64,000 bases of DNA from an uncultured Bacilli bacterium (lineage in GTDB: Bacteria; Bacillota_I; Bacilli_A; RF39; UBA660): contig CAKPFG010000002.1 in assembly GCA_934153675.1 (NCBI GenBank), positions 32,692-96,691 on the forward strand, in the 5' to 3' direction. Below the pieces are notes generated by a model. The model was not told where the DNA came from and did no database searches. It saw only the letters and a list, made by a program, of their open reading frames with translations. A program made the position numbers and the translations under genes. Shown one piece after another: positions 12,737 through 43,713 of this stretch. Every line of letters starts with the position of its first letter. Position 1 is the stretch's first letter.

Positions 12737-13780
12737 ATGAAATTACCTAATTCTTTCGGCTCTGTACAGAAGTTGAGTGGTAATAGAAGAAAACCTTATC
12801 GAGTAGTCAAAACTGTTGGATGGGATGAAAATGGAAAACAAATCAGAAAGACTATTGGATATTATGAAACTAGAACCCTCGCATTACAGGAATTAGCCTT
12901 ATTTAATGAAAAACCTTATGATATAGATGCAAGAAATATTACAGTAGATGAATTACATCAAAAATGGCAAAATGAGAAATATCCTAAAATAGCATATAAG
13001 ACTCAACAAGTATATAATATGTGTTGGAATTATTGTCAAGATGTTAAGGATATGGCATTTGTAGATATCAGATTAAATCATTTACAAGCAATCGTTGATG
13101 GTATGGGTAATAAATGGTCTGCTAAAAAGGCATTTAAGATATTATGGCATCAGATGTACGATTATGCTATTAAAAATGATATGGATGTAAGAAAGTATTC
13201 AGAATACATCGATATAGGCAAAAAAACCACTAAATTAGTGCGAATACCATTTGAAGAGGATGAAATAGACAAGTTATGGGATAATGTCGCTAGAATGGAC
13301 TTTATTGACACGATATTAATACTAATATATACAGGAATGAGAGTCGGCGAACTTTTAGATATTAAAGTAGAAAATGTTCATATAAACGAAAAATATATGG
13401 TTGGTGGCTCTAAAACCGAGGCAGGTAAAAATAGAGTCATACCATTCCATGAGAGAATAGTACCATTAGTAAAGAAATGGTATGATAATGCAATTAAAAA
13501 TGGTAGTGAATACCTAATATACAATCACGAATATAAACAAATGAAATATTGGAACTATTATCATGAGAAATGGGAAAAGATTATAGAACAATTAGAGTTT
13601 AGTCCTGAACATAAGCCTCACGATACTAGACATACATTCTCTACTCGTATGGATAGAACAAATGCTAATAAATTATGTATAAAAAGAATACTAGGACATG
13701 CTAGTAAGGATATTACTGATAAAGTATATACACATAAAGACATTGATGACCTATTAGAAGCAGTTAATATGTTAGAATAA
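12737..13780 (+). CDS. int: Phage integrase (tyrosine recombinase)
   Basis: 347 aa; HDTRHTFSTRM ... ILGHASKDITDKVYTH catalytic signature; N-terminal arm-type domain. Confidence 0.9.
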   Translation: MKLPNSFGSVQKLSGNRRKPYRVVKTVGWDENGKQIRKTIGYYETRTLALQELALFNEKPYDIDARNITVDELHQKWQNEKYPKIAYKTQQVYNMCWNYCQDVKDMAFVDIRLNHLQAIVDGMGNKWSAKKAFKILWHQMYDYAIKNDMDVRKYSEYIDIGKKTTKLVRIPFEEDEIDKLWDNVARMDFIDTILILIYTGMRVGELLDIKVENVHINEKYMVGGSKTEAGKNRVIPFHERIVPLVKKWYDNAIKNGSEYLIYNHEYKQMKYWNYYHEKWEKIIEQLEFSPEHKPHDTRHTFSTRMDRTNANKLCIKRILGHASKDITDKVYTHKDIDDLLEAVNMLE

Positions 13781-14070: not shown

Positions 14071-14439
14071 ATGGAAAAGTCAAAAAAAACTAAATACGAT
14101 ATAGAGTATCGTAAAAAACACAAAGTGCAATTTAATGTAGATTTAAACAAAGAAGAAATGCAATCTCTTAATGAGGCACTTAAAGCATCAGGAACTAGAA
14201 AGGCAGACTTTTTAAGAAAAGCAATTAGAAAAGAATGCAGAGAAAATAATATCTTATACTTTGATAGAGTCGCTAATTGTGATTGGTGTGGTAAAAGAGA
14301 TTATGTATCTATTACTCACTATGGAACATCACACTATAACAGATTAATATGTAGTGATTGTGCTAATGATATTATCCAACATCATAAGAATATAGATGGC
14401 ACTACTCCATCATGGTATAGACCTGATGATGAGGACTAA
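14071..14439 (+). CDS. Hypothetical zinc-ribbon protein (prophage-end accessory gene)
   Basis: CDWCGK...CSDC motif; followed by terminator. Confidence 0.5.
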   Translation: MEKSKKTKYDIEYRKKHKVQFNVDLNKEEMQSLNEALKASGTRKADFLRKAIRKECRENNILYFDRVANCDWCGKRDYVSITHYGTSHYNRLICSDCANDIIQHHKNIDGTTPSWYRPDDED

Positions 14440-14446
14440 TTAAAAA

Positions 14447-14480
14447 TGGCTAGGAATATATCCTAGTCTTTTTATTTTTT
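14447..14480 (+). terminator. Rho-independent terminator
   Basis: ggctaggaatatatcctagtc hairpin + T-run. Confidence 0.6.
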
Positions 14481-27053: not shown

Positions 27054-27116
27054 TTATTTACCACAACATTGCTTATATTTTTTACCACTTCCACATGACT
27101 TTTTAATATATGTCAT
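27054..27116 (-). repeat. Fossil secA 3'-end copy A (20-aa mini-ORF MTYIKKSCGSGKKYKQCCGK)
   Basis: Nucleotide and peptide identity to the secA C-terminal SEC-C tail. Confidence 0.8.
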
Positions 27117-27203
27117 TCTGCTCCACTTTAGAGCATTTTATCCTATAAATTTGCACTTTTTTGCACTTAGCTACACTCTGTTACACCCCGCTTCACTAGC
27201 AGA

Positions 27204-27225
27204 ACGTATCTAAAAACGTATCTAA
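27204..27225. repeat. Tandem motif ACGTATCTAAAAACGTATCTAA (copy A), overlapping stop of upstream gene
   Basis: Direct sequence. Confidence 0.85.
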
Positions 27226-27722
27226 TTTTTAACTGATTTTATTTGAAATAATGTTACTATATTTGCAATAATATTCATAAAATCAAATATTGCTGATGTA
27301 TATGATTTTATTACTATATCATATATAAACCACATAAGCATAGTAAAAACAATTAATAATTTGAATCTTTTGACATTTTTTATATTCATTAACCATATAT
27401 AAGTGACTGTACTGATTAAAGGCAATAATCCAATATACCTTAAATTATTGAATTTTAAAGTTAAAATTATTGCTAAAATTGTTATTACTATTTTTTCTTT
27501 TAGTCCTAGTTTATCTTTATAGCATAATATATTTCTAATCAAACTTAATGCATTTATTATAGCCCCAGTTATTCCACCCAAAATAATATTACTAATTACT
27601 GACATTCCTATTTGTACTGTCTGAAAATATAATATTTTTTTCTTTTGTTTTAATGTGCCAGAGTATACCATTAATATTGAAGCAATGAGCGCAATTATAT
27701 TCCCTATTATTATACTTACCAT
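27222..27722 (-). CDS. YgjV-like polytopic inner membrane protein (paralog 1)
   Basis: 166 aa, 4-5 TM, similar to adjacent paralog. Confidence 0.4.
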   Translation of the reverse strand: MVSIIIGNIIALIASILMVYSGTLKQKKKILYFQTVQIGMSVISNIILGGITGAIINALSLIRNILCYKDKLGLKEKIVITILAIILTLKFNNLRYIGLLPLISTVTYIWLMNIKNVKRFKLLIVFTMLMWFIYDIVIKSYTSAIFDFMNIIANIVTLFQIKSVKN

Positions 27723-27744
27723 TACTACATCCTAATTTTATTAA

Positions 27745-28260
27745 CTATTTTACTTTATTATTTTTCTTTTCATTATATACGGCTATGCCTGTTGAAATTA
27801 TCGAAATAATGTTTGAGATTATTCCTGCAATAGAAACAACAAAAATATTATATGATAACCACAAAAAATAGCAGAGTAAAGCTGTCTGCTTTACAACTTT
27901 TTGATCTCCATTCCAAATAGGTATTAGATATATAATTGCTGCAATTAAAGGAAATAAAGACCATATATTTTTATATGTAAAAATACTAACGATTATATAA
28001 ACTATTATAAAAATATATAAATATATTGATTTATTATACTTTTTATTTCTATCTTTCATTATTATAAAACTATCTCTAAAAATAGCCAAACCTTTTGTTA
28101 TACATCCTGTATATGCACCTAATAATAAATAATGTATTAAATTTAAAATATTAGATATAACCATGTTTCCTAATATTTTTTCTTTTTTACTTTTATGATA
28201 TGCAAAAATTGAAACAAAAAAGGAAGCAAAACCAATGAATTGTGAAATTATATAAACCAT
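27745..28260 (-). CDS. YgjV-like polytopic inner membrane protein (paralog 2)
   Basis: 171 aa, 4-5 TM. Confidence 0.4.
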   Translation of the reverse strand: MVYIISQFIGFASFFVSIFAYHKSKKEKILGNMVISNILNLIHYLLLGAYTGCITKGLAIFRDSFIIMKDRNKKYNKSIYLYIFIIVYIIVSIFTYKNIWSLFPLIAAIIYLIPIWNGDQKVVKQTALLCYFLWLSYNIFVVSIAGIISNIISIISTGIAVYNEKKNNKVK

Positions 28261-28287
28261 TATTATTCTCCTTATTACTTAAATATT

Positions 28288-28590
28288 TTATATTATTTCC
28301 TTATCTATCCATTTTAAATAATTATCATTTATACTTGTTAAATCAAAAATAGCAAATTCAAAACATTCATAGCTATGTTTGCTCTTAATAACTTCATATA
28401 TTTCTTTTAGGCAGTTTTTCTTAGTTTTCATTTGAAGTAAATATTCTTTTGCTTCTTCTCTTTCATTATTCCAATTCCAACTGCTTTCACTTTCAAGAAT
28501 GTGACAACTAGCAGCTAATTTTTTATCTAACAATTCTTTTGCAATACTTTCTTTATCGCAAAACGTTGTTACAATTATATATTTATCCAT
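28288..28590 (-). CDS. cutA: CutA1 divalent-cation tolerance protein
   Basis: IVTTFCDKESIAKELLDKKLAASCHI ... HSYECFEF ... YLKWI matches CutA family. Confidence 0.7.
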   Translation of the reverse strand: MDKYIIVTTFCDKESIAKELLDKKLAASCHILESESSWNWNNEREEAKEYLLQMKTKKNCLKEIYEVIKSKHSYECFEFAIFDLTSINDNYLKWIDKEII

Positions 28591-28593
28591 TTT

Positions 28594-29385
28594 TTACTCC
28601 TCAATAATATAATTTTTAATTACATTTACAACTTCATCATGCACTACCCCATTACTTATTAGAGCTCCTTTTATACTTTGATCATATCTTTGTTCATTTC
28701 CAAATAAATCAGTTACTTTTCCCCCTGCTTCTTCAACAATGACTTTTACAGCAGCAATATCACAATGTTTATGTTCTGTTCCTGTAAAAATTGTTAAGCT
28801 ATAATCTCCAGTTGCTACACAACAACTAGCTCTTGTAATACTTCCAATATCATTCAATCTGGTTTTCTTTCTTAATTCTTCAAATACTTTACAAACATTA
28901 TATTTTGCTTTAGACCACATATCACAATGACAAACTGTTCTAATATCATCTAAAACATAATTATTTACTGATATTTTCTCATTATTTTTATATGCCCCTT
29001 CTCCTTTTATGGCTGTATATAAACTATCTGTAAAAGGATCATAAACAACTCCTACTATAGGTTTTCCATCAATTACTAAAGCAAGTGAAAACACGGCAAC
29101 AGGAATATGTCTCGCATACATTGCTGTCCCATCAACAGGGTCACATACCCATTTATAATTACTTTCTCCAAATTGTTCTTCTTCTCCGTCGACCGCATGG
29201 CTTGGATATTTCTCTTTTACTCTATTAATTAAATAAGAATTAATTTCTGTATCGGCTAAAGTTACAATTGTTTTATCTCCTTTATATTTTTCGCCATTAT
29301 CTTTACTAAAATACTTTAGCATTATTTCACCTGCATATTTTGCAATATCTTTTGCAAAATTTAAATATTCACTATATGTACTCAT
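28594..29385 (-). CDS. Inositol monophosphatase family protein (SuhB-like)
   Basis: WVCDPVDGT metal-binding motif. Confidence 0.8.
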   Translation of the reverse strand: MSTYSEYLNFAKDIAKYAGEIMLKYFSKDNGEKYKGDKTIVTLADTEINSYLINRVKEKYPSHAVDGEEEQFGESNYKWVCDPVDGTAMYARHIPVAVFSLALVIDGKPIVGVVYDPFTDSLYTAIKGEGAYKNNEKISVNNYVLDDIRTVCHCDMWSKAKYNVCKVFEELRKKTRLNDIGSITRASCCVATGDYSLTIFTGTEHKHCDIAAVKVIVEEAGGKVTDLFGNEQRYDQSIKGALISNGVVHDEVVNVIKNYIIEE

Positions 29386-29542
29386 TTTAAACCACCTATT
29401 TTAAATATATTTCAAATTCATTATATCATACTACCAATTTATTTCAACCTTTTAAATTATTTTTACCAATGTCACAGTGGCAGTGGTTCATGTCTTCCGA
29501 AAGTATTGGAAATACTGGAATTTAATTTTCAAAATTCTTTCT

Positions 29543-29559
29543 AGATACGTTTTAGATAC
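29543..29559. repeat. Tandem motif copy B, inverted orientation (agatacgttttagatac)
   Basis: Reverse complement of gtatctaaaacgtatct. Confidence 0.8.
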
Positions 29560-29642
29560 TTTCTTGCAACATATTTAGTAACATATCTAAATAATATTGC
29601 CTAATTTTATATATAAAAAAGCCTCTATTTCAAGGCTTTTAA

Positions 29643-29750
29643 CTACTTTCCGCAACATTGTTTATATTTCTTCCCGCTTCCACAAGTTCCGTTCAATCTA
29701 GTATTTATGTTATTTATAGTATTTATGTTACTTATGGTACTATATATATT
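29643..29750 (-). repeat. Fossil secA 3'-end copy B (...NINTINNINTRLNGTCGSGKKYKQCCGK, no Met start)
   Basis: Peptide/nucleotide match to secA tail including upstream Asn/Thr-rich codons. Confidence 0.8.
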
Positions 29751-29902
29751 CTATAAAATGAGGTAAATTACCTCTTTTCCCTATTTTTGAACTTTAAATA
29801 GCTTTTTAAACTACTCCTTCCTTTCAAACTTCATTATAATTATACCATATTTTTAACTTTTTAACAATGAGCTTAATGGTTATTTTAAAAAAAAGGAGAT
29901 AA

Positions 29903-30133
29903 TTAAAATATATCATATTTAATTATATCGTTAATTATCTCTGAATGTGTCATTTCTTCAAAAGCATTTGTTGCTTTTATTTTAGAATTTTCGGTACTAG
30001 AAATATAATAATTTTCAGTTGTTTCTATATTACCATGCCCTAGTAAATCTGCAACATCTCTAATCTCTACACCATTCTTTAAAATTTTCGTAGCATAACT
30101 CCCTCGTAGATCATAAAATCTACAATTTTCGAT
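29903..30133 (-). pseudogene. Tyrosine integrase C-terminal fragment (after in-frame TGA)
   Basis: IENCRFYDLRGSYATKILKNGVEIRDVADLLGHGNIETTENYY = box II / catalytic Tyr region; same frame as 30134-30502 across a TGA. Confidence 0.75.
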
Positions 30134-30502
30134 TCATAATTCCTCATGAATAATTTTATATGGATATTTAGTTAAATTTGTACCCACATATTTTCCATCA
30201 TCTTTTGTAAAAACTAACTTTATTCTTTCTTTATCTTCTTCAGTATTTTCTACTATTCTTTGTTCAATGACTTTACCATATTCATTCAAAACATCTTCTA
30301 AATGATAATATTTATATTTTATTCCATACATTTTTTCAAAATTTTCCTGTTGTTTTTTATAGTTTGTTAATGCAATAAATAAAGTATTACTGATATATAT
30401 TTTTCTTTTTCCGTTAAATGTTTTATGTTCGCCTATATACCATCTTCCTTTTTCATCTATTAAACCATTATACATCTTATTTAAATTCTCTTCATTTATC
30501 AT
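30134..30502 (-). pseudogene. Tyrosine integrase middle fragment (catalytic domain, 5'-truncated)
   Basis: GEHKTFNGKRKIYISNTLF...LVFTKDDGKYVGTNLTKY matches integrase Lys-hairpin / box region; continues in-frame into 29903-30133 after TGA. Confidence 0.65.
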
Positions 30503-31503
30503 TTTCTAATTCCTCCTTGCTTTCTTTTAAGTAAAAGTTCTTTACTTTCAGACATGCCTTCCTTATCAAATTCATCAGATAATAGAACAGGATACATTGT
30601 TAAAATATCTTTTGTTCCAATCATAGTAACAACGCATAAATCACTTGTTATATCATCACCTTTAAAACCAATTGGTGTATCTAATCTAAATCTATACATA
30701 TCTGAAACTTCAAAATGATTTGAGTTCATGCCCTCAATTTTTTCTCTTGCATCTATTAATAATTTTTTTAAATCAATATATTTGAAAAAGCATCCATTTG
30801 TAGATTTTTCTCTTTGATTCATGTGTTTACTTATATGTCTCAAAAGCAAGTCTTCACTATCATCAAACAAACGATATATCATATAATCTTTTATTGGATC
30901 AAAATGATTGTCTGATTGTCTCAATTTTCCCAGATTCCGAAGTAAATACATTTCTAGTATTTGATAATGCTGTAGCAATTTGGGTGTTAAACGCTCAGAA
31001 TTTATTGCTTTCAAATATTTATAAGCATCTCTATAATTTTCTTTCAAGATATTTAAGCATACTAATCCAATTGTTGATTGAATATAAAACTTTCTATTTA
31101 ATTGTAAAGTTTCTAACATCTTTCTAGCAACTTCATTATCTCCTGTTTGAATATATAACTTTGCTATAGCAAGTAATGATTTATTTTGCATATCAGGATC
31201 AATCATACATTGACTATAATATGTTTTACTTTTCTCAAAATTATTTTCTATATTTTCTAACAATCCATATACTTGTTTAAATTCTATAGCATCACTTTGA
31301 TTATTCCTTAAAAGATTTCTTACCTTTGCATATTTTCCTTCTCTTAAATCTATTTGAATTAATTTTGATAAGGATAAATCGCCAAATTCACCATTATATT
31401 TGTAAGCCTTTTCAAAATAATAACGAGCATTTATATAATCATTATTATTCCAAAATTCTATTCCTTTAAAGTAAGCATCTTTTTCACTCAGTATATTCTC
31501 CAT
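30499..31503 (-). CDS. TPR-repeat protein (N-terminal TPR, C-terminal domain of unknown function)
   Basis: Start at MENILSEK; TPR-like helices; operon with sigma factor. Confidence 0.55.
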   Translation of the reverse strand: MENILSEKDAYFKGIEFWNNNDYINARYYFEKAYKYNGEFGDLSLSKLIQIDLREGKYAKVRNLLRNNQSDAIEFKQVYGLLENIENNFEKSKTYYSQCMIDPDMQNKSLLAIAKLYIQTGDNEVARKMLETLQLNRKFYIQSTIGLVCLNILKENYRDAYKYLKAINSERLTPKLLQHYQILEMYLLRNLGKLRQSDNHFDPIKDYMIYRLFDDSEDLLLRHISKHMNQREKSTNGCFFKYIDLKKLLIDAREKIEGMNSNHFEVSDMYRFRLDTPIGFKGDDITSDLCVVTMIGTKDILTMYPVLLSDEFDKEGMSESKELLLKRKQGGIRK

Positions 31504-31667
31504 TATTACCCCCCTTTTTTTGGTAAAAAAGAGTATTATAGATGGCAAATTTGATGCAAAAAAATCACAAAGTGATTTACTTTGTGATTTTTATTGTTTA
31601 ATAGTTAGTATTAATTATATAATTAAATTTAGACCAAAATCATTGTTTTTTATAAATATGTTATTAC

Positions 31668-33209
31668 TTAATCTTCCTTCTTTTTTAAAACTAAAGAAGA
31701 TCCTGTTGCTACTTCAACAGCCTTATCAATAAATTGATTTATATTTTCTTTATAAACTAATAATACCTTTTTCGTAGTTTCTATAACTTCACTTGTTTCT
31801 ATTCCTAAAAAACCTGCTACTGATTCTGTTGTGAAATACTTTCCATCTACATATCCTAATTTTAAACAAATTATTACTGCTTCTTTTGGTGTTAATGATT
31901 TTAACATTTCGCCAAAACTTGGTGTTCTCATTAATTCTAAAATTTTCAAACAATCATCTTTTTCTATTTCCGAAGTTGTTTGAGGTGAAATTGTTTTTGA
32001 ATTTTCAACTTTTTGTGAAATCAATTCTGGTTGAGTTACTTCTTCTGCTTTTGTTTTTTCTAGTGAAAGAATACTAGATCGGTTATTTGTATCTGAAACA
32101 TTTTGTGTTCTTCTTTTATATTTTTTTCTTTTTCCTTCAGGATTAGATAATAATCTTTTCATCTTGGGAATTAAACTACCATAAAATTTGTTTGTTTCTT
32201 CTTTTGCCCATGTTGATGAAGTAACTGGATTATCTAAATCCTCACCATATCTTAATTTTACTAAAGATTTTTCTTCTTCTGTTAATTTGCTTAACATTGC
32301 ATCTATTTCTTCCCTTGTATAACCTTTTAAATATTCATATATTGTTTGTAATTTTTTCCCTCTCATTTTTTCAAATTTCCTTTCTTCTACATTTATACTA
32401 GATTTCTCTATAGCATCATTATTTTGATTAACGAACTCTATCTTTTCTTGAAGTTGAATGTCTATTGCTGGAGTAATGCTAGATGGTTGTAATGGTAATT
32501 TATTAGATTTTAGATTTTTAGTTTTTTTACCAGGTCTTCCTACTGTTTCTATTACACCATTGTCTTGTAATTGTATTCCAATTCTTTTTACAATTTTTAT
32601 TATCAACTTTGACACATACGACTGAGTAATATTAAGTTTATCTGCAATTTCTTTTTGTGTATATGAATGGTCATTAATAAACCCAAAATAAAGCAAAATT
32701 ATTTCTCTATCTCTATCTGGTAAATTATAAACAATTTTTCTGACTTCATTATAAGTAATTTGATCTTCATAATCTGAAACAAAATCTGATATATCATCTT
32801 CTAAAATATCCTCAATCTTTTTTTCATTTCCCTCTTTGTCTGTTCCTATTGGAGTATTAATACTTTGATCAAAAGCAGATTTTTTACCTTTTCTTAAAAA
32901 CATTAATATTTCATTATCAATACACCTTGTTGCATAAGTAGCAAATTCAAAATTTTTATCAGTATCAAATGTATCTACACTTTTTACTAAGCCCACTACT
33001 CCTGTTGAAACTAATTCTTTTTTATCATAACGTGTATTAGCAAACTTTTTACTTACTTGATTCAATACTAATCTAATATTATGAATTATCACTTGTTCTC
33101 TAGCTTTTAAATCTCCCTGCTTATATTGTTCTAAATAAGAATATAATTCTTTCTTTGACAATGGCTTAGGAAGTTTATTTGACTCTATGAATAATTCTTC
33201 ATAATTCAT
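31668..33209 (-). CDS. SigE/SigK-like (group 3) sigma-70 family factor with about 290-aa C-terminal extension containing two extra sigma-4-like HTH repeats
   Basis: LPKPLSKKE...AREQVIIHNIRLV...ATYATRCIDNEILMFLR (region 2), YTQKEIADKLNITQSYVSKLI (region 4), then repeats LSKLTEEEKSLVKLRYGEDL and LTPKEAVIICLKLGYVDGKYFTTESVAGFLGIETSEV. Confidence 0.7.
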   Translation of the reverse strand: MNYEELFIESNKLPKPLSKKELYSYLEQYKQGDLKAREQVIIHNIRLVLNQVSKKFANTRYDKKELVSTGVVGLVKSVDTFDTDKNFEFATYATRCIDNEILMFLRKGKKSAFDQSINTPIGTDKEGNEKKIEDILEDDISDFVSDYEDQITYNEVRKIVYNLPDRDREIILLYFGFINDHSYTQKEIADKLNITQSYVSKLIIKIVKRIGIQLQDNGVIETVGRPGKKTKNLKSNKLPLQPSSITPAIDIQLQEKIEFVNQNNDAIEKSSINVEERKFEKMRGKKLQTIYEYLKGYTREEIDAMLSKLTEEEKSLVKLRYGEDLDNPVTSSTWAKEETNKFYGSLIPKMKRLLSNPEGKRKKYKRRTQNVSDTNNRSSILSLEKTKAEEVTQPELISQKVENSKTISPQTTSEIEKDDCLKILELMRTPSFGEMLKSLTPKEAVIICLKLGYVDGKYFTTESVAGFLGIETSEVIETTKKVLLVYKENINQFIDKAVEVATGSSLVLKKKED

Positions 33210-33404
33210 ATTTTTCCCCCTCCAAGTTTTCTACAAGTACATAACTTTGTGATTTTTTCTCACAAAAAGTGTTTTTATAATAACATCTTTTTTCAAAACA
33301 AGCAAGATTTCAACTTTTTTTTGTCAAAATTATTAAATTAATATATTTTTATCAGACTTTAATATACCTCTCTTTAAGTTATGTACTTTGAGATTTAATT
33401 GCTA

Positions 33405-33437
33405 AAAAAACAGCTTATAAAATTTTAAGCTGTTTTA
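33405..33437. terminator. Bidirectional hairpin terminator
   Basis: aacagcttataaaattttaagctgtt. Confidence 0.55.
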
Positions 33438-33439
33438 AT

Positions 33440-33720
33440 TATATTTTTCTTTTGACTAATTGATATATATCATTGTGAATTTCATCAAGAGTACGCATCC
33501 TATTATTTTCAGCACATTCTATTTTGTTCCATCCTAAATATTCAGAATATAACATATTACATTCTTTTGTACTTTCTCCACTAATAAATTCTTCATATAC
33601 TCTTTGTCCTGCTATATATGCATCTTTTTTTGTCTTAAAACCAGATTTTGATATTTGTTTTCTTTTACCATTAACCTTTCCTGCTTCAAATCTGTATTCA
33701 TACAGATTATTTCTTTTTCT
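33440..33720 (-). pseudogene. Tyrosine integrase N-terminal fragment (arm-binding + start of core-binding domain), no Met start
   Basis: RKRNNLYEYRFEAGKVNGKRKQISKSGFKTKKDAYIAGQRVYEEF... Confidence 0.7.
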
Positions 33721-33789
33721 AATACTAATAATAATTCCTCATCTCCTTTACAAAAAAATGTTAGCATACACATACTAACATTTTTTATT

Positions 33790-34782
33790 TTAAATACTAA
33801 GTCCTACTTTTTCTTTTACTATTTTCATTTTTTTAGAAGCATATACTCTAGCTTTATTAGCACCATTTGTTAATATTTCTTTTAAATGTTTTTCATCATT
33901 TCTATATTGATAAAATTTGTCTTGAATACCTTTAATAAATTTACAAACACTATCAGCAACTTCAATTTTAAAATCTTTATAATTATAATTCTTATATTTT
34001 TCATTAGATTCCTCTATAGTCATATTATTAACCACACATACTAATGATATTAAATTAGATATTCCCGGTTTACTATCCTCATCATAATAAACTTTTCCCT
34101 CACTATCTGTACACGCAGACATTATTTTCTTTCTTGTTATTTCTATATCATCTAACATAAATATTGTCCCTTTATCATCCTTTGGAGCAGATTTACTCAT
34201 TTTAACGCTTGGATCTTGTAAGTTCATTATTTTAGCACCTATTTTAGGTATTTGATATTCTGGTAATTTGAAAGTATTACCATAAATATTATTAAATCTT
34301 TCTCCAAAATCTCTAGTTTTTTCAATGTGTTGTCTTTGATCTGCACCTACTGGTACTATTTCAGCATCATATAATAATATATCTGCTGCCATTAAAGTTG
34401 GATAAATAAATAATCCCATATCTTTTTCACTTTTTCCTAATTGTTGTTTTTTAGATTTAAATTGTGTCATTCTAGATAATTCTCCAACACTACATTGAAA
34501 TGACATTAAAAATCCTAAATTACAATGTTCTAATACATTACTTTGCATAAATAATGCCGTATTATTAATATCGATTCCACAAGCCATATACATTGCTGTT
34601 ATATCTAATATATTATTTCTTATTTCTTTTGGATCAATATAAGTTGTCAATCCATGAATATCTGCAATAAATATTAATGAATTATATTTATATTGTTGTT
34701 CTACAAATCCTTTTATTCCTCCAATATAGTTTGCTAAAGTTATACTTCCTGTAGGTCTTACACCTGTAATCATTGTTTTCAT
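33790..34782 (-). CDS. trpS: Tryptophanyl-tRNA synthetase
   Basis: Class I aaRS HIGH-like (GVRPTGSITLANYIG) and KMSKS motifs; 330 aa. Confidence 0.9.
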   Translation of the reverse strand: MKTMITGVRPTGSITLANYIGGIKGFVEQQYKYNSLIFIADIHGLTTYIDPKEIRNNILDITAMYMACGIDINNTALFMQSNVLEHCNLGFLMSFQCSVGELSRMTQFKSKKQQLGKSEKDMGLFIYPTLMAADILLYDAEIVPVGADQRQHIEKTRDFGERFNNIYGNTFKLPEYQIPKIGAKIMNLQDPSVKMSKSAPKDDKGTIFMLDDIEITRKKIMSACTDSEGKVYYDEDSKPGISNLISLVCVVNNMTIEESNEKYKNYNYKDFKIEVADSVCKFIKGIQDKFYQYRNDEKHLKEILTNGANKARVYASKKMKIVKEKVGLSI

Positions 34783-34784
34783 AT

Positions 34785-35080
34785 TTTTTTCCTTCTTTCT
34801 TATATTTTTATATTTTAAATCAATGATTAATATAACTTATACCATCGTTTCAAATACTTTTCCATACAACCATCTCCTTCTTATAAATAAAAAAAGATTC
34901 CAGTCTAAAAATTAAGACAAGAATCTTGTACCACCTAATAATAGTTTCATTTCATATACCATCATATATGTTCACTTGATAACGGGTAGAAACTCCCGAT
35001 TTTTCATACTTTAATTAATTTCTGAAAAACTCTCTTTGGTCCATTCAATATTCATCCATTGCAACTTTCCATCAACCAGT
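34785..35080 (-). ncRNA. T-box riboswitch leader of trpS (Trp specifier UGG candidate, T-box AUUAGGUGGUAC, terminator)
   Basis: Minus strand reads ...attaggtggtacaagattcttgtcttaatttttagactggaatcttttt (T-box + terminator hairpin); upstream aauggaccaaagagag stem I-like AGAGAG. Confidence 0.6.
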
Positions 35081-35317
35081 TGCTTTCTATAAATTTCATA
35101 AATATCTACTTCTCCAAATCACTGATTTAAAATATGGTTAGATTATAGCACTAAACTTGCATTTTGTCAAAAATCAAAGTAATAAAAAAGGATGTCCACA
35201 TTTGAAATGTTGTCTACATCCTTGTTTTACTTATGTTTTATTAGTATTACGTGGACAAGTTATCAAACTCGAACCAACTTAATATTCTTTGAATTTCTTG
35301 TTTTCCCTTATTTTATC

Positions 35318-35371
35318 TTACTTTCCGCAGCATTGTTTGTATTTTTTTCCCGAACCACAAGGAATAAGTTA
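35318..35371 (-). repeat. Fossil secA 3'-end copy C (LIPCGSGKKYKQCCGK, no start codon)
   Basis: Match to secA tail. Confidence 0.8.
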
Positions 35372-35464
35372 CAATTTTTGAATAATTTTTTCCTTTTAAA
35401 GTGGTGTTTTTTATTTTAAAATTATAATTTTTTGTTGAATAATTGTAAGATTTTATTCAAGAGT

Positions 35465-35487
35465 GTATCTAAAAACGTATCTAAAAT
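35465..35487. repeat. Tandem motif copy C (tgtatctaaaaacgtatctaaaa)
   Basis: Direct sequence. Confidence 0.85.
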
Positions 35488-35504
35488 AATAGATTTATAT
35501 CTTG

Positions 35505-36497
35505 TTAATATAAGTCTTTTATTGGCATTACCATCTCTTTACCATCTTTTAATAACGCAATACTCGAATTCTTTAATTCTTCTTTATTAATCAGTTGATT
35601 AGAAATGTAATCAAAGAACATATCATTTATTGAATTTAAAAAAGTATTTACTTCATTTAATAATCTTATACCTGAAGAACTATAATCAAACCATATATCA
35701 CTGTCAATTATGTTTACTACTGGATATTTTTTATTATATCCAGATGCAGATTTATTTGGAAAAATCAGGTCAAACGGATTATCCCTTGTGACAATCGCTT
35801 CTTCTATCTTCTGCTTTACATAATTATCTTTATATATATCTATTAAAGTACTATTTATTATAATGTTGCCATTTTTATCAATACCTACCATATTACATTT
35901 AGAACTAAACGAATAATAACAAGTACACTCTTCTTTTCCAGATATATATCTATTTTCAGTATAATGAACAACTCTATTTCTTAACATATACACTTCCCAC
36001 CAAAGGCCAAATTCATTTCTGTTTGGATAAAAATCAAAAGACTTATCTTTATTAAAATAATGTTGTAATTGAATTCTTTGTTCAGATTCAAAAAGAGAAT
36101 ATAATTGTGTTACTAAGCTATCAAAATAGAATGAAAATTTATCATTTAATGGTGGTGAAAAAATATTTCTTTCATCGGTCTTTATAGTACCAACTGCAAG
36201 ATTTATATTATTTAAAAATTGAAAAATAAAATAAATTAATTCCTTTTCCTTATACAAAAATTCTTCAATAATACGAAGTTCATCATACCTTACTATGTGT
36301 TCTTCATTTTTATACTTTTCAATACTTAAAGTCGTTAATGCTAATAAAATGGATTGTAATTTAAATTCAATTTTATTATAATTTTCTCTAATGTTATTAA
36401 TTTCATTATTAAACTCTGTAATTGTCATGTTAATTTTTTCACACTCCTCCAAAGATGGCGCAAATATCCAAATATTACTATAGCAGTTTTTTATCAT
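35505..36497 (-). CDS. Hypothetical protein (330 aa), operon with APH-family kinase
   Basis: ORF, overlaps upstream gene end. Confidence 0.5.
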   Translation of the reverse strand: MIKNCYSNIWIFAPSLEECEKINMTITEFNNEINNIRENYNKIEFKLQSILLALTTLSIEKYKNEEHIVRYDELRIIEEFLYKEKELIYFIFQFLNNINLAVGTIKTDERNIFSPPLNDKFSFYFDSLVTQLYSLFESEQRIQLQHYFNKDKSFDFYPNRNEFGLWWEVYMLRNRVVHYTENRYISGKEECTCYYSFSSKCNMVGIDKNGNIIINSTLIDIYKDNYVKQKIEEAIVTRDNPFDLIFPNKSASGYNKKYPVVNIIDSDIWFDYSSSGIRLLNEVNTFLNSINDMFFDYISNQLINKEELKNSSIALLKDGKEMVMPIKDLY

Positions 36498-37401
36498 TGT
36501 TTAATGATACTACTTTAGCTGCTGATAGCACATCATTCTTTAATTCATCTGATTCAGGATGTTTAACTAATTGGGCTAGAAAATAAACCATGTCATATAT
36601 TCCTAATCTTTCATATAAATTTGGAGTATTAATCAATTCCGGATAAAAATGACTAACATATGACATTATATTCAAATACTGACTAACATCTGTATAATCT
36701 TCTGTTTCTTCACTAGCAAATTTCCATGGTTTCCTTATCATTCTATAAAATATATCCAATTCAAAATCTCTTGGTGCATACATTGATCTTTCAAAATCGA
36801 TTATTTTTATTTTTCCATTGTCTACAAATATATTATCAAAGTGAAGATCATTATGTACTAATACAAATTCATCAGATTCAAGATACTTATCAAAATCAGA
36901 ATATGCTTGTTCTAATAATTTTTGTTCCTCCTCATTGAAAATATTTAATTTTTTTTCTTTTGCATATAAGGGATTAAATTCTTTTTTCATATATTCAGAC
37001 CAGTTATATCTCTCACCTCTAATGCTATGCATTTTTTTCATGGCATCACATAATTGTCTTATTATATCCTCTCTTTGTTCTTCTGTATAAGTATGCCAAA
37101 CATTATATAACGAAACTCCATTTACTTTTTCAAGAATTTCATAAAAATAAGGAACATCTACCTTATCTGTATTTGAATAGTATAACTTAGGTATTAAACT
37201 ATTATCTTTATTGGAATTGTAAAATGCAATTTCTTTTTTAAATTCTTCTTCATTATCAACATCAGTGCATACTTTGACTATGTAAGAATCATTTACCCTG
37301 TATAAAGTATTTGTAAATCCAACATTTATTTTTTCAACTCTTGGATTTGTTCCAAATAATAATTCATTGTTTTTTATTATTAAATTTATAATTTTATCCA
37401 T
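36478..37401 (-). CDS. Phosphotransferase-family (APH/choline-kinase-like) kinase
   Basis: LVHNDLHFDNIFV ... IIDFERS catalytic (Brenner) and metal-binding motifs; RBS aaggaagtga before MDKIIN. Confidence 0.7.
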   Translation of the reverse strand: MDKIINLIIKNNELLFGTNPRVEKINVGFTNTLYRVNDSYIVKVCTDVDNEEEFKKEIAFYNSNKDNSLIPKLYYSNTDKVDVPYFYEILEKVNGVSLYNVWHTYTEEQREDIIRQLCDAMKKMHSIRGERYNWSEYMKKEFNPLYAKEKKLNIFNEEEQKLLEQAYSDFDKYLESDEFVLVHNDLHFDNIFVDNGKIKIIDFERSMYAPRDFELDIFYRMIRKPWKFASEETEDYTDVSQYLNIMSYVSHFYPELINTPNLYERLGIYDMVYFLAQLVKHPESDELKNDVLSAAKVVSLNNDKKLL

Positions 37402-37465
37402 AATTATCACTTCCTTTTTAATTATATCATACACACCTCATTTTAAGGCTAATCGGGGCAAAAAA

Positions 37466-37486
37466 ACGTATCTAAAACGTATCTAA
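37466..37486. repeat. Tandem motif copy D (acgtatctaaaacgtatctaa), just upstream of -35 of APH operon promoter
   Basis: Direct sequence. Confidence 0.85.
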
Positions 37487-37568
37487 GCGCCTTTTTTGAG
37501 GTAAAATTGCCTAAAAATTGTAAGTAGCAAAAAGCTCGCAAGCCCTTTATTTATAAGGCTTTACGAGC

Positions 37569-37616
37569 TTATTTTCCGCAACACTGTTTATACTTGCGTC
37601 CACTGCCACATGTTCA
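37569..37616 (-). repeat. Fossil secA 3'-end copy D (TCGSGRKYKQCCGK, preceded by stop)
   Basis: Match to secA tail. Confidence 0.8.
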
Positions 37617-37829
37617 TCCTTTTCTAGTATTATTTGTACTATTTTTACTATGTGTTTTCTTCTCAATGAACACAAAATGCACACAATGTATCCATTCGTT
37701 CTCAAGATTAATTAATTTGAGTATATAAATAATATATACTGCTGACTAAATTATACTATAAAAAATAGTTAATTGAATAATTTAATCAATTAACTATTTT
37801 TTATAGTATAATATTAGTGGTGAGCTATT

Positions 37830-38531
37830 ATGTTAAACTTTTCAAAGAAATATATTGTTGTTATCATATTGAGCATAATTATTTTTCTTACATTATATTT
37901 TTGTTGGATATTTTTGTTAAAAAAAGAATATAACTACAAAAATGGAGAAATTGGAATTTATCAATATAATGATAAAATAAAAGTATCTGAGTTGGATTCT
38001 TTCTTTTTGGATTCTTTAATTGTAAATAATAATTATTTATCTTTTTATGATGATGCAATTATTCAAATAAATAAAAATGATTTTCGTAAGCGAGTTATTG
38101 GAGAAGTATCAGTATTTGCTAAATATGATACTATAGAAAATTTAGTTCAATTTTTAAAGGAAAATGGAGTAGAAATTCAATCTAATCTAATATTAGAAAA
38201 TCGAAGGATAATTATATATAGTAATGAGAAAACAGTGTGTATTTTATTTTTTGAATCTGAAAATAAGGTTAGATTAAATTTTAGAACAGAATTACCTTAT
38301 GAAATATCTAATATGTACACTAGTGATGATGAATTTGAAAACTATTATTTAAAAATAAATGAAAAAACTCACTCATCAATAAAAGAACAATTAAAATATA
38401 ATTTTATAAAGATAGCCATTGTAATAGTTTGCTTTAATTTGATTTGTTTGATATTTCTTACATTAAAAAAATTAATAATAATAAAGTGTAAAAAAAGCTC
38501 AGTTTCAAAACTAAATTCCACTTCTACTTAA
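37830..38531 (+). CDS. Hypothetical membrane protein (N- and C-terminal TM helices)
   Basis: 233-aa ORF, plus strand. Confidence 0.5.
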   Translation: MLNFSKKYIVVIILSIIIFLTLYFCWIFLLKKEYNYKNGEIGIYQYNDKIKVSELDSFFLDSLIVNNNYLSFYDDAIIQINKNDFRKRVIGEVSVFAKYDTIENLVQFLKENGVEIQSNLILENRRIIIYSNEKTVCILFFESENKVRLNFRTELPYEISNMYTSDDEFENYYLKINEKTHSSIKEQLKYNFIKIAIVIVCFNLICLIFLTLKKLIIIKCKKSSVSKLNSTST

Positions 38532-38668
38532 ATTAGGGTGGAATTTAGTTTTACAGCACAGCAGTTATTTAAAAAATTTCACTTTGTCCGTTGACTGTCC
38601 TAAAAAAATGTCCTAACATGGTATTATAGAGAAATTGTAGAGAGAAATAAATAGACATAATTTCGTGT

Positions 38669-38941
38669 CTATTTTTTTTGTTTATAAAGAAAGGGGATGA
38701 GAGCTAATTTTAAAATATTTTTAAGTATTACCAATTTATGACATGTATTAAGAAAAAATCTTTTACCTGTATTCATATATTCATTAAATGATTTCATCCC
38801 AGCAACATAAGCATCCTGTTTTGTCTTGAAACCTGATTTGTTAATAAATTTTCTAACTCCCCTTTGTGGAGCTATTTCAAATCTATATTGATATAAATTC
38901 CCTCCTTTTGTTACATTCACTTTTCCCATAACTTCCTCCAC
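38669..38941 (-). pseudogene. Tyrosine integrase N-terminal arm-binding domain fragment (truncated after about 63 aa), adjacent to secA 3' end
   Basis: GNLYQYRFEIAPQRGVRKFINKSGFKTKQDAYVAGMKSFNEYMNTG then unrelated tail. Confidence 0.7.
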
Positions 38942-39163
38942 TAAATTTCTTTAGAGAACGAAAAAATCAGCACGAATGCTGATTATTGTGAATTTGTGTT
39001 CATTGAAAAATTCCTTGTTTTATAAGGTTTAAATCAATTGTGTGCATTAATTTTTTATTTTACGCACACAAATTGCACACAAGTGTGCGTTTTGAGCTGT
39101 TTTTTGTCTATCTTTTTGACTTTTTTTACTGCTGTATTACTGCACAACCCCTTATAAATCAAC

Positions 39164-41653
39164 TTATTTACCACAACATTGTTTATATTTTTTCCCTGAG
39201 CCGCAAGGGCAAAGTTCATTACGTCCTATTTTATTTACCCTTTTTGGAGTATTTTTCTTAACAGTATTTTTATCCTCATTTGTATTAATTTTATCAGATA
39301 CTTGTTTTCTCTCTATGTTTTGTCTTACTTCAGCTTTTAATAAATATGTTGTTATCTGGGCATCTATTTTAATAAGTAATTTTTCAAATAACTGATATCC
39401 TTCATTTTTATATTCTCTTAGAGGATCATTTTGAGCGTAACCTCTTAAATATATACCTTCTCTTAAATGAGACATAGTATTAATATGTTCCATCCAGTAT
39501 GTATCAATAACCCTTAGTGATATTGCTTTTTCAAACTCATCTTTAATCTCTTCTGGTACTTTATTTAATTTTTCCTCATACTCTAATTTTAATTTATTAT
39601 AAATGTAGTCAGACATATCATCAATATTCATGTTAAATACTTCATCAATAGATATTTTATCTTTTAATACATCATTTATTGCTTCTAACATTTCTGATAC
39701 ATCATTTCTATTTACATTTTCCATACTGATATGTGCATCTATAGAATCGTCAATATAATTATGAATAGAATTTAATATTTCATCATGAATGGAATTATTA
39801 TCTAAAATGCTATTTCTTTTTTTATAAATAATTGTTCGTTGTTCATTCAAAACATTATCATATTCCAATAATGTTTTTCTAGTATCAAAGTTATTACCCT
39901 CAACTCTCTTTTGGGCAGATTCTAATGAATTTGATAACATTTTATTTCTAATTGACATATCATCATTAAAACCTATTCTTTGTAACATAACTTTGGCTCT
40001 ATCGGTACCAAATCTTACCATTAAGTCATCTTCAAATGATACACAAAATTGACTAAAGCCTGGATCTCCTTGACGCCCTGAACGTCCTCTTAACTGATTA
40101 TCAATACGCCTTGATTCATGTCTTTCAGTACCTATAACACACAATCCACCCAATGCTCTTGTTTCTTCTGTCAACTTAATATCAGTTCCACGACCGGCCA
40201 TATTTGTAGCAATTGTTACAGCACCTTTTTGTCCTGCATTTGCAATTATTTCTGCCTCACGGGCATTATTTTTAGCATTCAATACCTCATGGGGAATATG
40301 TTCACGTTTTAATTTGTCACTTAAAAGTTCACTTGTTTCTACTGCTACAGTACCTACTAAAATTGGTTGACCCTTAGAATATCTTTCTTTAATCTCATTA
40401 ATAATGGCTTTATATTTACCTTCTTTCGTTGCAAATAATAAATCTCCATAGTCTTTTCTAATTATTGGTTTATTTGTTGGTATTGTAATAACATACATAT
40501 TATATATTTCTCTAAATTCTTCTTCTTCTGTTTTAGCAGTACCTGTCATTCCCGATAATTTTTTATACATTCTAAACAAATTTTGAAAAGTAATAGTTGC
40601 TAAGGTTTTAGTTTCTTCATTAATAGTAACACCTTCCTTAGCTTCAATAGCTTGGTGTAATCCATCTGAAAAACTGCGCCCTTGCATCAATCTACCAGTA
40701 AATTGATCTACTATAACAATTTTATCATCACTTACGACATAATCTACATCCTTTTTCATTCCAAAATTAGCTTTTAATGCTTGATTGATAAAATGAACTA
40801 ATGTAGTATTTTCAATATCATATAAGTTTTCTAATTTAAAATGCTTTTCAGCTTTTTTTATACCCTCATCATCTAATGATACAGCCTTCGTTTTTTCATC
40901 ATATATATAACCATTATTTTCTTTTAATGACTTAGCAAATTTATCTGCCTGTATATATAAATTAGCAGATTTCATAGCGCCACCCGAAATAATTAATGGA
41001 GTTCTAGCCTCATCTATCAATACTGAATCTACTTCATCTATAATAGCAAAATTAAGTGGTCTTTGAACTCTATCATCCTTTTTGATTACCATATTATCTC
41101 TAAGATAATCAAAACCTATTTCATTATTGGTTGAATATAAAATATCACAATTATAAGCCTCTCTTTTTTCAGCAGAACTTAAATTTCTATAATTTACACC
41201 AACTGTAAGACCTAAATATTTATATATTTCTCCCATCCATTCTGCATCACGACCAGCTAAGTATTCATTAACGGTAATAATGTGAACACCATTACCAGTT
41301 AAAGCATTCAAATAAGCAGGCAAAGTTGATGTTAATGTCTTTCCCTCTCCAGTTTTCATTTCTGCAATATTACCATAATGAATTGCAAGTCCACCAACCA
41401 ACTGAACAAAGAATGGTTTTTCTTTTAAAACTCTATATGCAGCTTCTCTAACTGTTGCAAATGCTTCAATCTTAATATCTTCTAATGTTTCACCATTTTT
41501 TAATCTTTCCTTAAATTCAGCTGTTTTATTTTTTAGTTGCGAATCAGTTAAATTGGAATATTCTTCATCTAATAATTCAACTTTTTCAGCAATCTTTTTA
41601 AATTTTTCTAGTTCTTTATATTCATGATCAAATATACGTTTTAAAAATTTCAT
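39164..41653 (-). CDS. secA: Preprotein translocase subunit SecA (with C-terminal SEC-C zinc-binding tail)
   Basis: 829 aa; DEAD-like motor, C-terminal CPCGSGKKYKQCCGK. Confidence 0.97.
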   Translation of the reverse strand: MKFLKRIFDHEYKELEKFKKIAEKVELLDEEYSNLTDSQLKNKTAEFKERLKNGETLEDIKIEAFATVREAAYRVLKEKPFFVQLVGGLAIHYGNIAEMKTGEGKTLTSTLPAYLNALTGNGVHIITVNEYLAGRDAEWMGEIYKYLGLTVGVNYRNLSSAEKREAYNCDILYSTNNEIGFDYLRDNMVIKKDDRVQRPLNFAIIDEVDSVLIDEARTPLIISGGAMKSANLYIQADKFAKSLKENNGYIYDEKTKAVSLDDEGIKKAEKHFKLENLYDIENTTLVHFINQALKANFGMKKDVDYVVSDDKIVIVDQFTGRLMQGRSFSDGLHQAIEAKEGVTINEETKTLATITFQNLFRMYKKLSGMTGTAKTEEEEFREIYNMYVITIPTNKPIIRKDYGDLLFATKEGKYKAIINEIKERYSKGQPILVGTVAVETSELLSDKLKREHIPHEVLNAKNNAREAEIIANAGQKGAVTIATNMAGRGTDIKLTEETRALGGLCVIGTERHESRRIDNQLRGRSGRQGDPGFSQFCVSFEDDLMVRFGTDRAKVMLQRIGFNDDMSIRNKMLSNSLESAQKRVEGNNFDTRKTLLEYDNVLNEQRTIIYKKRNSILDNNSIHDEILNSIHNYIDDSIDAHISMENVNRNDVSEMLEAINDVLKDKISIDEVFNMNIDDMSDYIYNKLKLEYEEKLNKVPEEIKDEFEKAISLRVIDTYWMEHINTMSHLREGIYLRGYAQNDPLREYKNEGYQLFEKLLIKIDAQITTYLLKAEVRQNIERKQVSDKINTNEDKNTVKKNTPKRVNKIGRNELCPCGSGKKYKQCCGK

Positions 41654-42926: not shown

Positions 42927-43532
42927 ATGCAAAAAATTATTATAAATCATTGGATGAATTTAATAACAAAATATAATTCATATGATGACATCAAATTAGA
43001 ACAAATCAAATATGGATTAACTGGTTTATATATGACTATATCTAAAGCTATAATAATATTTATAATTTCATTGTTATTAAATGTTGTTAAAGAGTCAATT
43101 ATATTACTCTTATGCTTTAATGCAATAAGAGTAACATCATTTGGTATCCATGCAAAAAAAAGTTGGATATGTCTAGTTACATCAATTATTTTATTTATTG
43201 GAATACCATTAATAATTAAAAATATATATTTAAATTTTACACTAAAATTAATAATAGGCTGTATCAATATTATATTTATCTATAAATATAGTCCAGCTGA
43301 TACAAAAAAAAGACCTATTGTCAATAAAAAAAGAAGATATATATATAAATATATATCTACAATAACTGCAACAATATTTGTATTATTAAGTTTAATTATT
43401 AAAAATAATTACTTAATAAATAGTTTGATATTTTCTTTAATCATACAAAATATATTAATATCACCATTTACATATAAAATATGTAATGAGCCGTATAATA
43501 ATTATGTTAATTATATAAAAAATAAAATTTAG
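42927..43532 (+). CDS. agrB: Accessory gene regulator B (AgrD-processing membrane peptidase)
   Basis: 201 aa polytopic; RVTSFGIHAKKSWICLVTS with conserved His/Cys. Confidence 0.75.
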   Translation: MQKIIINHWMNLITKYNSYDDIKLEQIKYGLTGLYMTISKAIIIFIISLLLNVVKESIILLLCFNAIRVTSFGIHAKKSWICLVTSIILFIGIPLIIKNIYLNFTLKLIIGCINIIFIYKYSPADTKKRPIVNKKRRYIYKYISTITATIFVLLSLIIKNNYLINSLIFSLIIQNILISPFTYKICNEPYNNYVNYIKNKI

Positions 43533-43581
43533 TATTTAATATTATTAAATTTTCGAGTATATAGAAGGAGGAGTAGTAATT

Positions 43582-43701
43582 ATGGGATTTTTAGCAAATT
43601 TATTAGCAACTATCGGTATTGGTAGTGCATCTACTGGAAGTCAAGCTTGTGTTTTATTCTTTGTTGACGAGCCTGAATGTCCAGAATCATTAATTAAATA
43701 A
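43582..43701 (+). CDS. agrD: Autoinducing peptide precursor AgrD (39 aa)
   Basis: RBS gaaggagg; MGFLANLLATIGIGSASTGSQACVLFFVDEPECPESLIK: amphipathic leader, Cys-containing core, acidic DEPE tail. Confidence 0.7.
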   Translation: MGFLANLLATIGIGSASTGSQACVLFFVDEPECPESLIK

Positions 43702-43713
43702 GTCTAACTTGAC

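Follow-up and report, generated by a model that had tools for sequence, protein, structure and literature searches.

A 64,000-nucleotide stretch of the genome of an uncultured Bacilli bacterium (contig CAKPFG010000002.1, positions 32,692 to 96,691; hereafter the window), with a G+C content of ~26%, carries a gene for a 513-residue sigma factor in which a core resembling sporulation sigma factors is followed by a long tail built from relatives of sigma region 4. It is considered with moderate confidence that the protein works as an alternative sigma factor of the SigK/SigE clade, that its gene is the cargo of an island, and that the tail is a handle for protein docking or regulation and not an additional reader of promoters. 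The evidence for this explanation comes from the domain composition of the protein, the conservation and charge reversal of its terminal module, the occurrence of the same cassette on other proteins, and the genomic context.

The open reading frame (ORF) of the sigma gene is real and intact, with a good ribosome-binding site ahead of its 513 codons, and a protein 99% identical to its product (P0001) represents 16 sequences. A preliminary description of this DNA had taken the first ~215 residues for a sporulation-type sigma factor with a region-4 helix-turn-helix (HTH), and this assignment is well supported. Pfam Sigma70_r2 (PF04542) matches residues 45-109 with 43.8 bits and Sigma70_r4 (PF04545) matches residues 163-209 with 58.3 bits, passing the gathering cut-offs of 24 and 24.1, respectively, and the sigma-2 motifs HN..LV and F..Y...CI.NEIL.F are invariant across the family. 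The N-terminal 215 residues align end to end with the models of sigma-K (TIGR02846/NF004471, 199-212 bits) and sigma-E (TIGR02835/NF006158), and the closest sequence match among solved structures is B. subtilis sigma-K (PDB code: 8vjl). However, the scores lie under every equivalog and subfamily cut-off: the top NCBIfam model, SigK NF004471, gives 211.7 bits against a cut-off of 252, SigK TIGR02846 gives 198.8 against 298.65, and the SigE models give 197.9 and 187.2 against 339 and 348.6, respectively. Because the top models are those of SigK and SigE and all scores are under the cut-offs, residues 1-215 are, as judged from their sequence, a complete sigma factor of the SigK/SigE clade that is not certified as SigK or SigE. 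The protein also begins without a pro-sequence, as had been proposed, since its residue 7 pairs with residue 22 of B. subtilis sigma-K in 8vjl. C. difficile sigma-K is likewise reported to have no pro-sequence, and the pro-sequence of the Bacillus type, removed by SpoIVFB, is not universal.

Beyond the core, 28 full-length homologs were aligned, and two blocks stand out as strongly conserved, module A (residues ~288-357) and module B (residues ~417-502), with variable linkers between them. Mean pairwise identity is 0.64 in module A and 0.66 in module B, compared to 0.60 in sigma-2, 0.55 in sigma-4, and 0.20 in the linkers (0.21 in linker 1), and by this measure conservation of the two modules equals or exceeds that of the catalytic domains. 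Iterated hidden Markov models of the modules absorbed canonical region 4 and became circular; therefore, non-circular profiles built from module copies alone were used instead. With these, the match of module B to region 4 of the same family covers 60 columns, the HTH included (hhalign probability 97%, E 8e-11), and module B also matches the solved sigma-4 domains of group-1 sigma factors (1tty_A with E 8.5e-8, also 1rio_H and 1ku3). Module A matches the family's own region 4 over just 40 columns, which correspond to the 4.1 half (92%, E 6e-7), and a 26-residue 4.1 segment alone in the PDB (E ~3e-3), whereas the likeness between modules A and B is weak (54%). In AlphaFold2 models, both modules are confident small helical bundles (per-residue confidence, pLDDT, 80-94) joined by disordered linkers, and a loop stands in module A in place of the first HTH helix. 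Every match listed when the tail model was compared to the PDB with Foldseek was a sigma factor, and isolated sigma-4 domains were matched well: 1ku7_A with a template-modelling (TM) score of 0.73, 1rio_H with a TM score of 0.77 and a root-mean-square deviation (rmsd) of 1.5 Å, and 6onu_H with an rmsd of 1.0 Å. These matches indicate that an HTH fold is present in the C-terminal extension. Compared to region 4 of group-1 sigma factors (PF04545; 1tty, 1ku7, and 1rio), module B has the same fold with the whole domain aligned, while module A has in common the 4.1 segment 'L-x-x-x-E-x-x-L-I-x-L-R-Y-G' and differs in having no first HTH helix. Hence, of the two extra region-4-like HTH units originally described, the second is a genuine sigma-4 fold, and the first is a match to the region 4.1 half with an incomplete HTH. 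Basic linkers had also been noted, and clusters of Lys and Arg indeed open both of them, after sigma-4 and after module A. Pfam has no model for either module, and neither attains a gathering score alone.

The net charge of the HTH segment is +3.4 ± 1.2 in canonical region 4 and -2.5 ± 0.9 in module B (146 and 126 sequences, respectively). In the alignment with region 4 of Thermotoga sigma-A (1tty_A), the DNA-contacting TRERIRQ is replaced by EEEEVIE in module B, so that both the conserved Arg, Glu, and Gln of the DNA contacts and the basic character of the recognition helix are missing there. With the charge of its HTH reversed where sigma-4 touches DNA, module B is an unlikely DNA reader, and the idea of extra HTH units that read DNA is improbable for this module, the sole complete HTH of the tail.

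The architecture, at first called novel, is not confined to one island but typical of a large and conserved family. The full 513-residue protein has 433 database matches, many of them full-length at 45-99% identity and some on contigs of hundreds of kilobases, and the loci of its relatives (designated by L numbers) come from uncultured gut metagenome-assembled genomes (MAGs) labelled 'Tenericutes', 'Bacilli', 'Mollicutes', and 'Erysipelotrichaceae'. When the tail alone served as the query of an exhaustive search, at least 1,138 cluster representatives matched at E <= 1e-3, 743 of them at E <= 1e-10, with lengths from 186 to 1,862 residues and up to 17 matched stretches per protein. The A-B cassette is carried by two classes of sigma factor, namely SigK-like cores (window, L001-L003, L012, L018, and L039) and RpoD-like cores with regions 1.2, 2, 3, and 4 in proteins of 717-1060 residues (L004-L006, L008-L011, L013, L014, L016, L018-L020, and L024). 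Stand-alone A-B proteins of 186-247 residues that have no sigma core also occur (P0180, P0184, P0209, and P0226 among others). The largest carriers are RpoD-like sigma factors with 10-13 matched tail stretches, mostly repeats of module A. A housekeeping role was considered for the RpoD-like carriers and rejected, as they have no dnaG context and score 280-300 bits against cut-offs of 354-572; being so far under the RpoD cut-offs, they look like alternative sigma factors. Extended sigma genes may lie side by side: a 1060-residue RpoD-like sigma factor with at least five module A repeats adjoins a SigK-like one in L018 (5281-8460), three sigma genes stand in a row in L013 (4380-8734), and two RpoD-like extended sigma genes are in tandem in L019 (5344-9679). 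A Clostridium origin was rejected, since the relatives are MAGs of uncultured Tenericutes/Bacilli. A phage or satellite origin was also rejected, because GenBank phages and IMG/VR match the N-terminal core alone and never the tail, and the tetratricopeptide repeat (TPR) protein encoded next to the sigma factor has no viral match. Literature searches for a sigma core with a sigma-4-derived tail returned nothing relevant and the names of homolog clusters were uninformative; a C-terminal cassette of this origin on sigma-70-family factors is apparently undescribed.

In the proposed mechanism, the protein would act as an alternative sigma factor of the SigK/SigE clade (group 3, mother-cell sporulation), with its gene as the cargo of an old tyrosine-integrase island at the 3' end of secA. 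The host is an uncultured low-GC bacterium of the gut, of the Bacilli/'Tenericutes' type, and its relatives encode sporulation genes. Residues 1-215 would do the ordinary job of a sigma factor, binding core RNA polymerase via sigma-2 and reading the -10 and -35 elements. The tail could be regarded as a portable cassette of 290 residues on flexible linkers, consisting of one module A and a terminal module B. The latter, a complete sigma-4 fold presumably derived from a group-1 sigma factor with its DNA-contacting arginines changed to acidic or hydrophobic residues, may stand in for sigma-4 without binding DNA and attach to a partner that is itself conserved. Partners that come into question are the RNA polymerase β-flap, to which phage T4 gp33 binds, the protein's own basic sigma-4 or module A, which would imply autoinhibition, and the products of the TPR-BIG gene pair described below; both the partner of the tail and the regulatory consequence are what we infer. 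Module A and the basic linkers might add avidity or non-specific nucleic-acid affinity. The closest working analogy for module B may be T4 gp33, a sigma-4 mimic that binds the β-flap without reading DNA sequence and still works when linker-fused to the sigma-2-like gp55 (PMC2988020). This likeness concerns the proposed function only, with β-flap binding of module B itself an analogy; gp33 is a sigma-4 mimic by description and module B a true sigma-4 homolog, with no sequence relationship shown between the two. Sigma factors are usually controlled via separate anti-sigma proteins, pro-sequences, or, in factors of the extracytoplasmic function (ECF) type, unrelated C-terminal domains, and SigI is a further sigma factor with a regulatory C-terminal extension. 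Among ECF factors, the ECF41, ECF42, and ECF56 types have regulatory C-terminal extensions, e.g., SigG1 with its SnoaL_2 domain (PMC7730460). The proposed arrangement is similar to the ECF and SigI extensions in that a sigma core has an extra C-terminal domain modulating activity in cis. However, the folds of those extensions are unrelated, and the present family combines group-3-like or group-1-like cores with sigma-4-derived modules that are often in tandem.

The explanation that competes best with this one is that the protein is the lineage's own late mother-cell sigma-K, in which the tail replaces the pro-sequence and holds the factor inactive or localised until a sporulation checkpoint. 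We regard it as unlikely, but it accounts for several observations, including the sigma-K identity of the top NCBIfam and PDB matches and a missing pro-sequence as in C. difficile. In addition, sigma-K is described as universal in spore-formers. Related MAGs encode SigE-like proteins (300-330 bits), SigG (over the cut-off), and SpoIIGA, and SpoVS as well as the mother-cell genes for CotE, YutH, SpoIIIAH, GerE, and SpoIIID are found near several of the relatives' loci; since SigE, SigG, SpoIIGA, CotE, and others are encoded, the related lineages are Bacilli of the spore-former type. RpoD-like carriers of the tail adjoin sporulation sigma genes, one before spoIIGA-sigE in L011 and another after sigG in L014. 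No canonical SigK was found among the 80 loci kept, which is weak evidence because the scan pattern CI[DN]NEILM may miss such genes; B. subtilis sigma-K itself has CIENEILM at this position. On the other hand, the window protein scores under both SigK cut-offs, and in a spore-former, chance alone would place a sporulation gene within 9 kb. The extended SigK-like gene varies widely in genomic position among relatives and is flanked by integrases, in place of a fixed sporulation locus, and SigK-like paralogs lie side by side in L083 and L003. An identity with SigE is no better supported, as neither the spoIIGA-sigE-sigG context nor the SigE cut-off is found for the window sigma factor, and the SigE-like genes of related MAGs encode separate ~230-residue proteins adjoining SpoIIGA and SigG. 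A tblastn search of the window with relatives' sporulation genes found none, a result that is uninformative for a 64-kb stretch.

Rather less likely again is that the extra units are added DNA-binding domains, by which one sigma factor would read elements upstream of the -35 element, like a built-in activator or UP-element reader. Modules A and B both derive from sigma region 4, and the last helix of module A has a net charge of +3.6 across the family and is followed, as is sigma-4, by a Lys/Arg cluster. A palindromic motif could furthermore be taken for a binding site: a 9-mer is confined to the surroundings of the sigma gene in the window, L001, L081, and L084, and the motif AAAATCACAAAGT/ACTTTGTGATTTT occurs around the sigma gene alone, at 31560-31592 and 33235-33257 in the window and at 5832, 7611, and 7747-7771 in L001. 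In the window, the palindrome TCACAAAGT/ACTTTGTGA folds as a terminator-like hairpin with a T-run, which is probably the terminator of the sigma gene. The palindrome could be an operator, and the motif could serve as terminator, operator, or both. Against added DNA readers stand the acidic module B with its lost DNA-contacting residues and module A with its missing HTH helix. Copies of module A number from 1 to more than 10, a variation more in keeping with avidity than with a promoter architecture that is fixed. Moreover, neither a sigma-K/sigma-E-type promoter nor a repeated upstream element is seen near the island genes: in a scan for sigma-K/sigma-E promoters, matches were at or under the shuffle expectation with none upstream of island genes, and a sigma-70 promoter scan was uninformative, with 43 found and 47 expected. 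It had been suggested that the factor may rewire sporulation-type or toxin-type promoters; the former has no promoter signal to support it near the island genes, and nothing indicates TcdR-like regulation for the latter.

As to the genomic context, the description of a decayed mobile element is upheld by integrase fragments on both sides of the sigma gene and by five copies of the secA 3' end. The secA gene (39167..41653, minus strand) ends with a SEC-C motif. Its true 3' end at 39165-39210 is followed by four remnants of ~46 nt (37570-37615, 35319-35364, 29644-29689, and 27055-27100), with 31-35 of 46 nt matching and each encoding ...CGSG(K/R)KYKQCCGK and a stop codon (...CGSGKKYKQCCGK). Between 35319 and 29689 lie trpS, an N-terminal integrase fragment, the sigma gene, the TPR gene, a chimeric BIG/recombinase ORF, and a C-terminal integrase fragment; the first of the two fragments could be arm-binding-like on a reading of its translation. 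Integrases at the island of the window are pseudogene fragments alone, whereas intact ones adjoin the orthologs in L001, L084, and L087. In L001, where the sigma factor is 81% identical, the order is hpf - secA - integrase - sigma - TPR - BIG; in L084 and L087 the gene immediately upstream of the sigma gene encodes an integrase, in L081 and L082 the sigma gene directly follows secA, and in L095 an integrase/TPR-BIG island borders on the 3' end of secA. Such an arrangement is similar to that of tyrosine-recombinase islands at gene 3' ends, in which the cargo, varying among relatives at the same site, lies between integrase genes or fragments and between direct repeats of the 3' end of the target gene (secA in the window). 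The window element differs in having four successive remnants and no intact excision function. Skin elements that interrupt sigK are a looser parallel, as the window element carries a sigma gene and does not interrupt it. The secA copies split the ~12 kb downstream of secA (27055-39210) into four segments with unrelated cargo. The four successive remnants suggest that integrative elements accumulated one after another at a single attachment site. The island context shows that extended sigma factors of this kind move between genomes.

The gene downstream of the sigma gene encodes the TPR protein, whose family comprises 117 matches of ~334 residues. Its start is most likely the ATG at 31503, because homologs start there, and its C-terminal part remains as unclassifiable as was first reported, with no Pfam, PHROG, or PADLOC match. 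Co-transcription with the sigma gene, which had been assumed, is doubtful because the hairpin (-15.4 kcal/mol, T7) separates the sigma stop codon from the TPR start. In every TPR context sampled, an overlapping gene for a protein of 727-881 residues, here called BIG, comes next, which has an AbiEi-like winged HTH, TPR repeats, and a weak R3H match. TPR-BIG is a conserved pair in L094-L099, L001, and L018, and the two genes are probably translationally coupled. In the window, a chimeric ORF overlaps the TPR stop codon, and BIG is evidently truncated, since its first 17 codons run into a recombinase fragment. A defence system was considered and rejected, as PADLOC gave just a sigma-2 match to MzaA and the AbiEi-like winged HTH in BIG. 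The proposal that the TPR protein may be a partner or anti-sigma factor is at most weakly sustained, but a link of the TPR-BIG pair to the extended sigma factors has some support. TPR-BIG adjoins an extended sigma gene at six of 15 sigma-side loci, two of the six chosen knowingly: the window (BIG truncated), L001, L018, L084 (TPR decayed), L098, and L099, with the order TPR - BIG - sigma and gaps of 33-57 nt in L018, L098, and L099. Yet the fixed partner of the TPR protein is the ~850-residue BIG. In L017 (5974-7326), a SigK-like sigma factor has module A, but the position of module B is taken by a domain with homology to the middle of BIG (residues ~367-501, 31-33% identity, E 1e-10), and this fusion is a Rosetta-stone hint of a functional link between sigma factor and BIG. 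In L094, TPR-BIG lies in a MiaB-YlbF-CotE neighbourhood where L085 carries an extended sigma gene instead.

The least probable of the explanations weighed is that the locus is a decaying remnant in this genome, with a dead island, a destroyed BIG gene, and a sigma factor unused despite its intact-looking frame: the integrase fragments, the truncated BIG gene, and the L084 TPR gene, whose breakage into fragments indicates that the TPR-BIG/sigma cluster erodes, would fit it, but the sigma frame is intact behind a good ribosome-binding site, its near-identical form represents 16 sequences, strong purifying selection acts on the modules throughout the family, and extended sigma factors often occur without TPR-BIG.

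Several points weigh against a functional sigma factor with a docking tail. The models show no confident packing between domains (predicted TM-scores 0.28 and 0.37), and for this reason autoinhibition and flap docking have no direct support. The basic last helix of module A and the basic linker starts leave room for some contact of the tail with DNA or RNA. TPR-BIG occurs without an adjacent extended sigma gene in all four TPR-side loci, and the truncation of BIG beside an intact sigma gene shows that a partnership of sigma factor and TPR-BIG is not obligatory.

A more far-reaching idea, which we put forward tentatively and think improbable, is that the A-B cassette is an unrecognised portable RNA-polymerase-docking device of spore-forming gut Bacilli. 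The acidic module B would occupy the β-flap or mask the factor's own sigma-4, and an array of module A would act as a tether. The cassette would then be a shared switch for SigK-like and RpoD-like sigma factors and, in trans, for the stand-alone A-B proteins, which would respond to one signal, possibly read by TPR-BIG in sporulation. A widespread cassette made from a sigma factor's own region 4 would be a new way to build regulation into a sigma factor. It shows charge reversal, up to 17 repeats, and shuffling between sigma factors of the group-1-like and group-3-like kinds, it also exists free-standing, and it defines at least two domain families missing from Pfam. The hosts are uncultured yet abundant Bacilli of the gut, with a sporulation and transcription biology that is almost unexplored.

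Table 1. Features of the extended sigma gene and its surroundings in the window, with residue numbers of the 513-residue protein where applicable.
Feature	Position	Strand	Basis
Extended sigma factor gene, 513 residues	31668..33209	-	ORF list; Pfam and NCBIfam; hundreds of full-length homologs
Sigma domain 2, residues ~20-112	32874..33152	-	Sigma70_r2; aligned to 8vjl_B residues 22-125; pLDDT ~90
Canonical sigma region 4, residues ~146-215, basic HTH	32565..32774	-	Sigma70_r4; family HTH net charge +3.4
Linker 1, residues 216-287, disordered and variable, basic cluster at start	32349..32564	-	pLDDT 30-35; mean pairwise identity 0.21
Module A, residues 288-357, region-4.1-like helices, then basic terminal helix, HTH incomplete	32139..32348	-	hhalign; PDB profile matches; pLDDT 80-92
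Linker 2, residues 358-416, disordered, starts GKRKKYKRR	31962..32138	-	pLDDT ~30; pairwise identity 0.20; charge +6 in first 15 residues
Module B, residues 417-502, complete sigma-4 fold, acidic 'recognition' helix	31704..31961	-	hhalign; 1tty_A; Foldseek; charge
Half-copy of hairpin motif, 26-48 nt upstream of sigma start codon	33235..33257	-	Repeat family D5; motif census
15-bp hairpin and T7 between sigma and TPR genes	31560..31592	-	Terminator scan; -15.4 kcal/mol
TPR protein, 334 residues	30499..31503	-	Pfam TPR_19, 29 bits; ATG at 31503; listed TTG ORF reaches 31548
Chimeric 122-residue ORF, first 17 BIG codons and middle fragment of tyrosine recombinase	30134..30502	-	Comparison with MINEENLNK... 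in L001 and L018; BIG match
N-terminal integrase fragment upstream of sigma gene	33442..33738	-	phmmer match to integrases, E 5e-6
C-terminal tyrosine integrase fragment, pseudogene	29906..30133	-	Pfam Phage_integrase positions 126-169 of 172, E 4.6e-9
secA 3'-end remnant, upstream boundary of trpS-sigma-TPR segment	35319..35364	-	35/46 nt; ...CGSGKKYKQCCGK and stop codon
secA 3'-end remnant, downstream boundary of trpS-sigma-TPR segment	29644..29689	-	Repeat comparison

Other features of the window were noted in passing. The island carries a gene for tryptophanyl-tRNA synthetase (TrpRS) at 33790-34782 on the minus strand, the product of which is 33% identical to the TrpRS of the syntenic relative L081, compared to 74% for secA and 56% for hpf. 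No trpS follows Trx-bPH (15.7-16.9 kb) in the window, the site of the L081 copy, and the island TrpRS may be a xenologous replacement or an auxiliary enzyme. A T-box upstream of trpS was not found at Rfam gathering scores. Between two secA remnants, at 35505-37434 on the minus strand, an APH-family phosphotransferase of 318 residues is encoded together with an overlapping 330-residue protein that has no Pfam or PADLOC match. A second integrated element is probably present at 11600-14450 on the plus strand, where a strand switch and an inverted GC skew accompany a tyrosine-integrase-like gene (12737..13780) that matches the integrases of the island in phmmer with E 3e-11. Furthermore, an agr-type quorum-sensing locus at 42927-45713 comprises AgrB on the plus strand and, on the minus strand, a GHKL histidine kinase and a probable LytTR regulator. 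Its synteny is kept in L081 and L082, and the probable LytTR regulator is 37% identical to that of L081.

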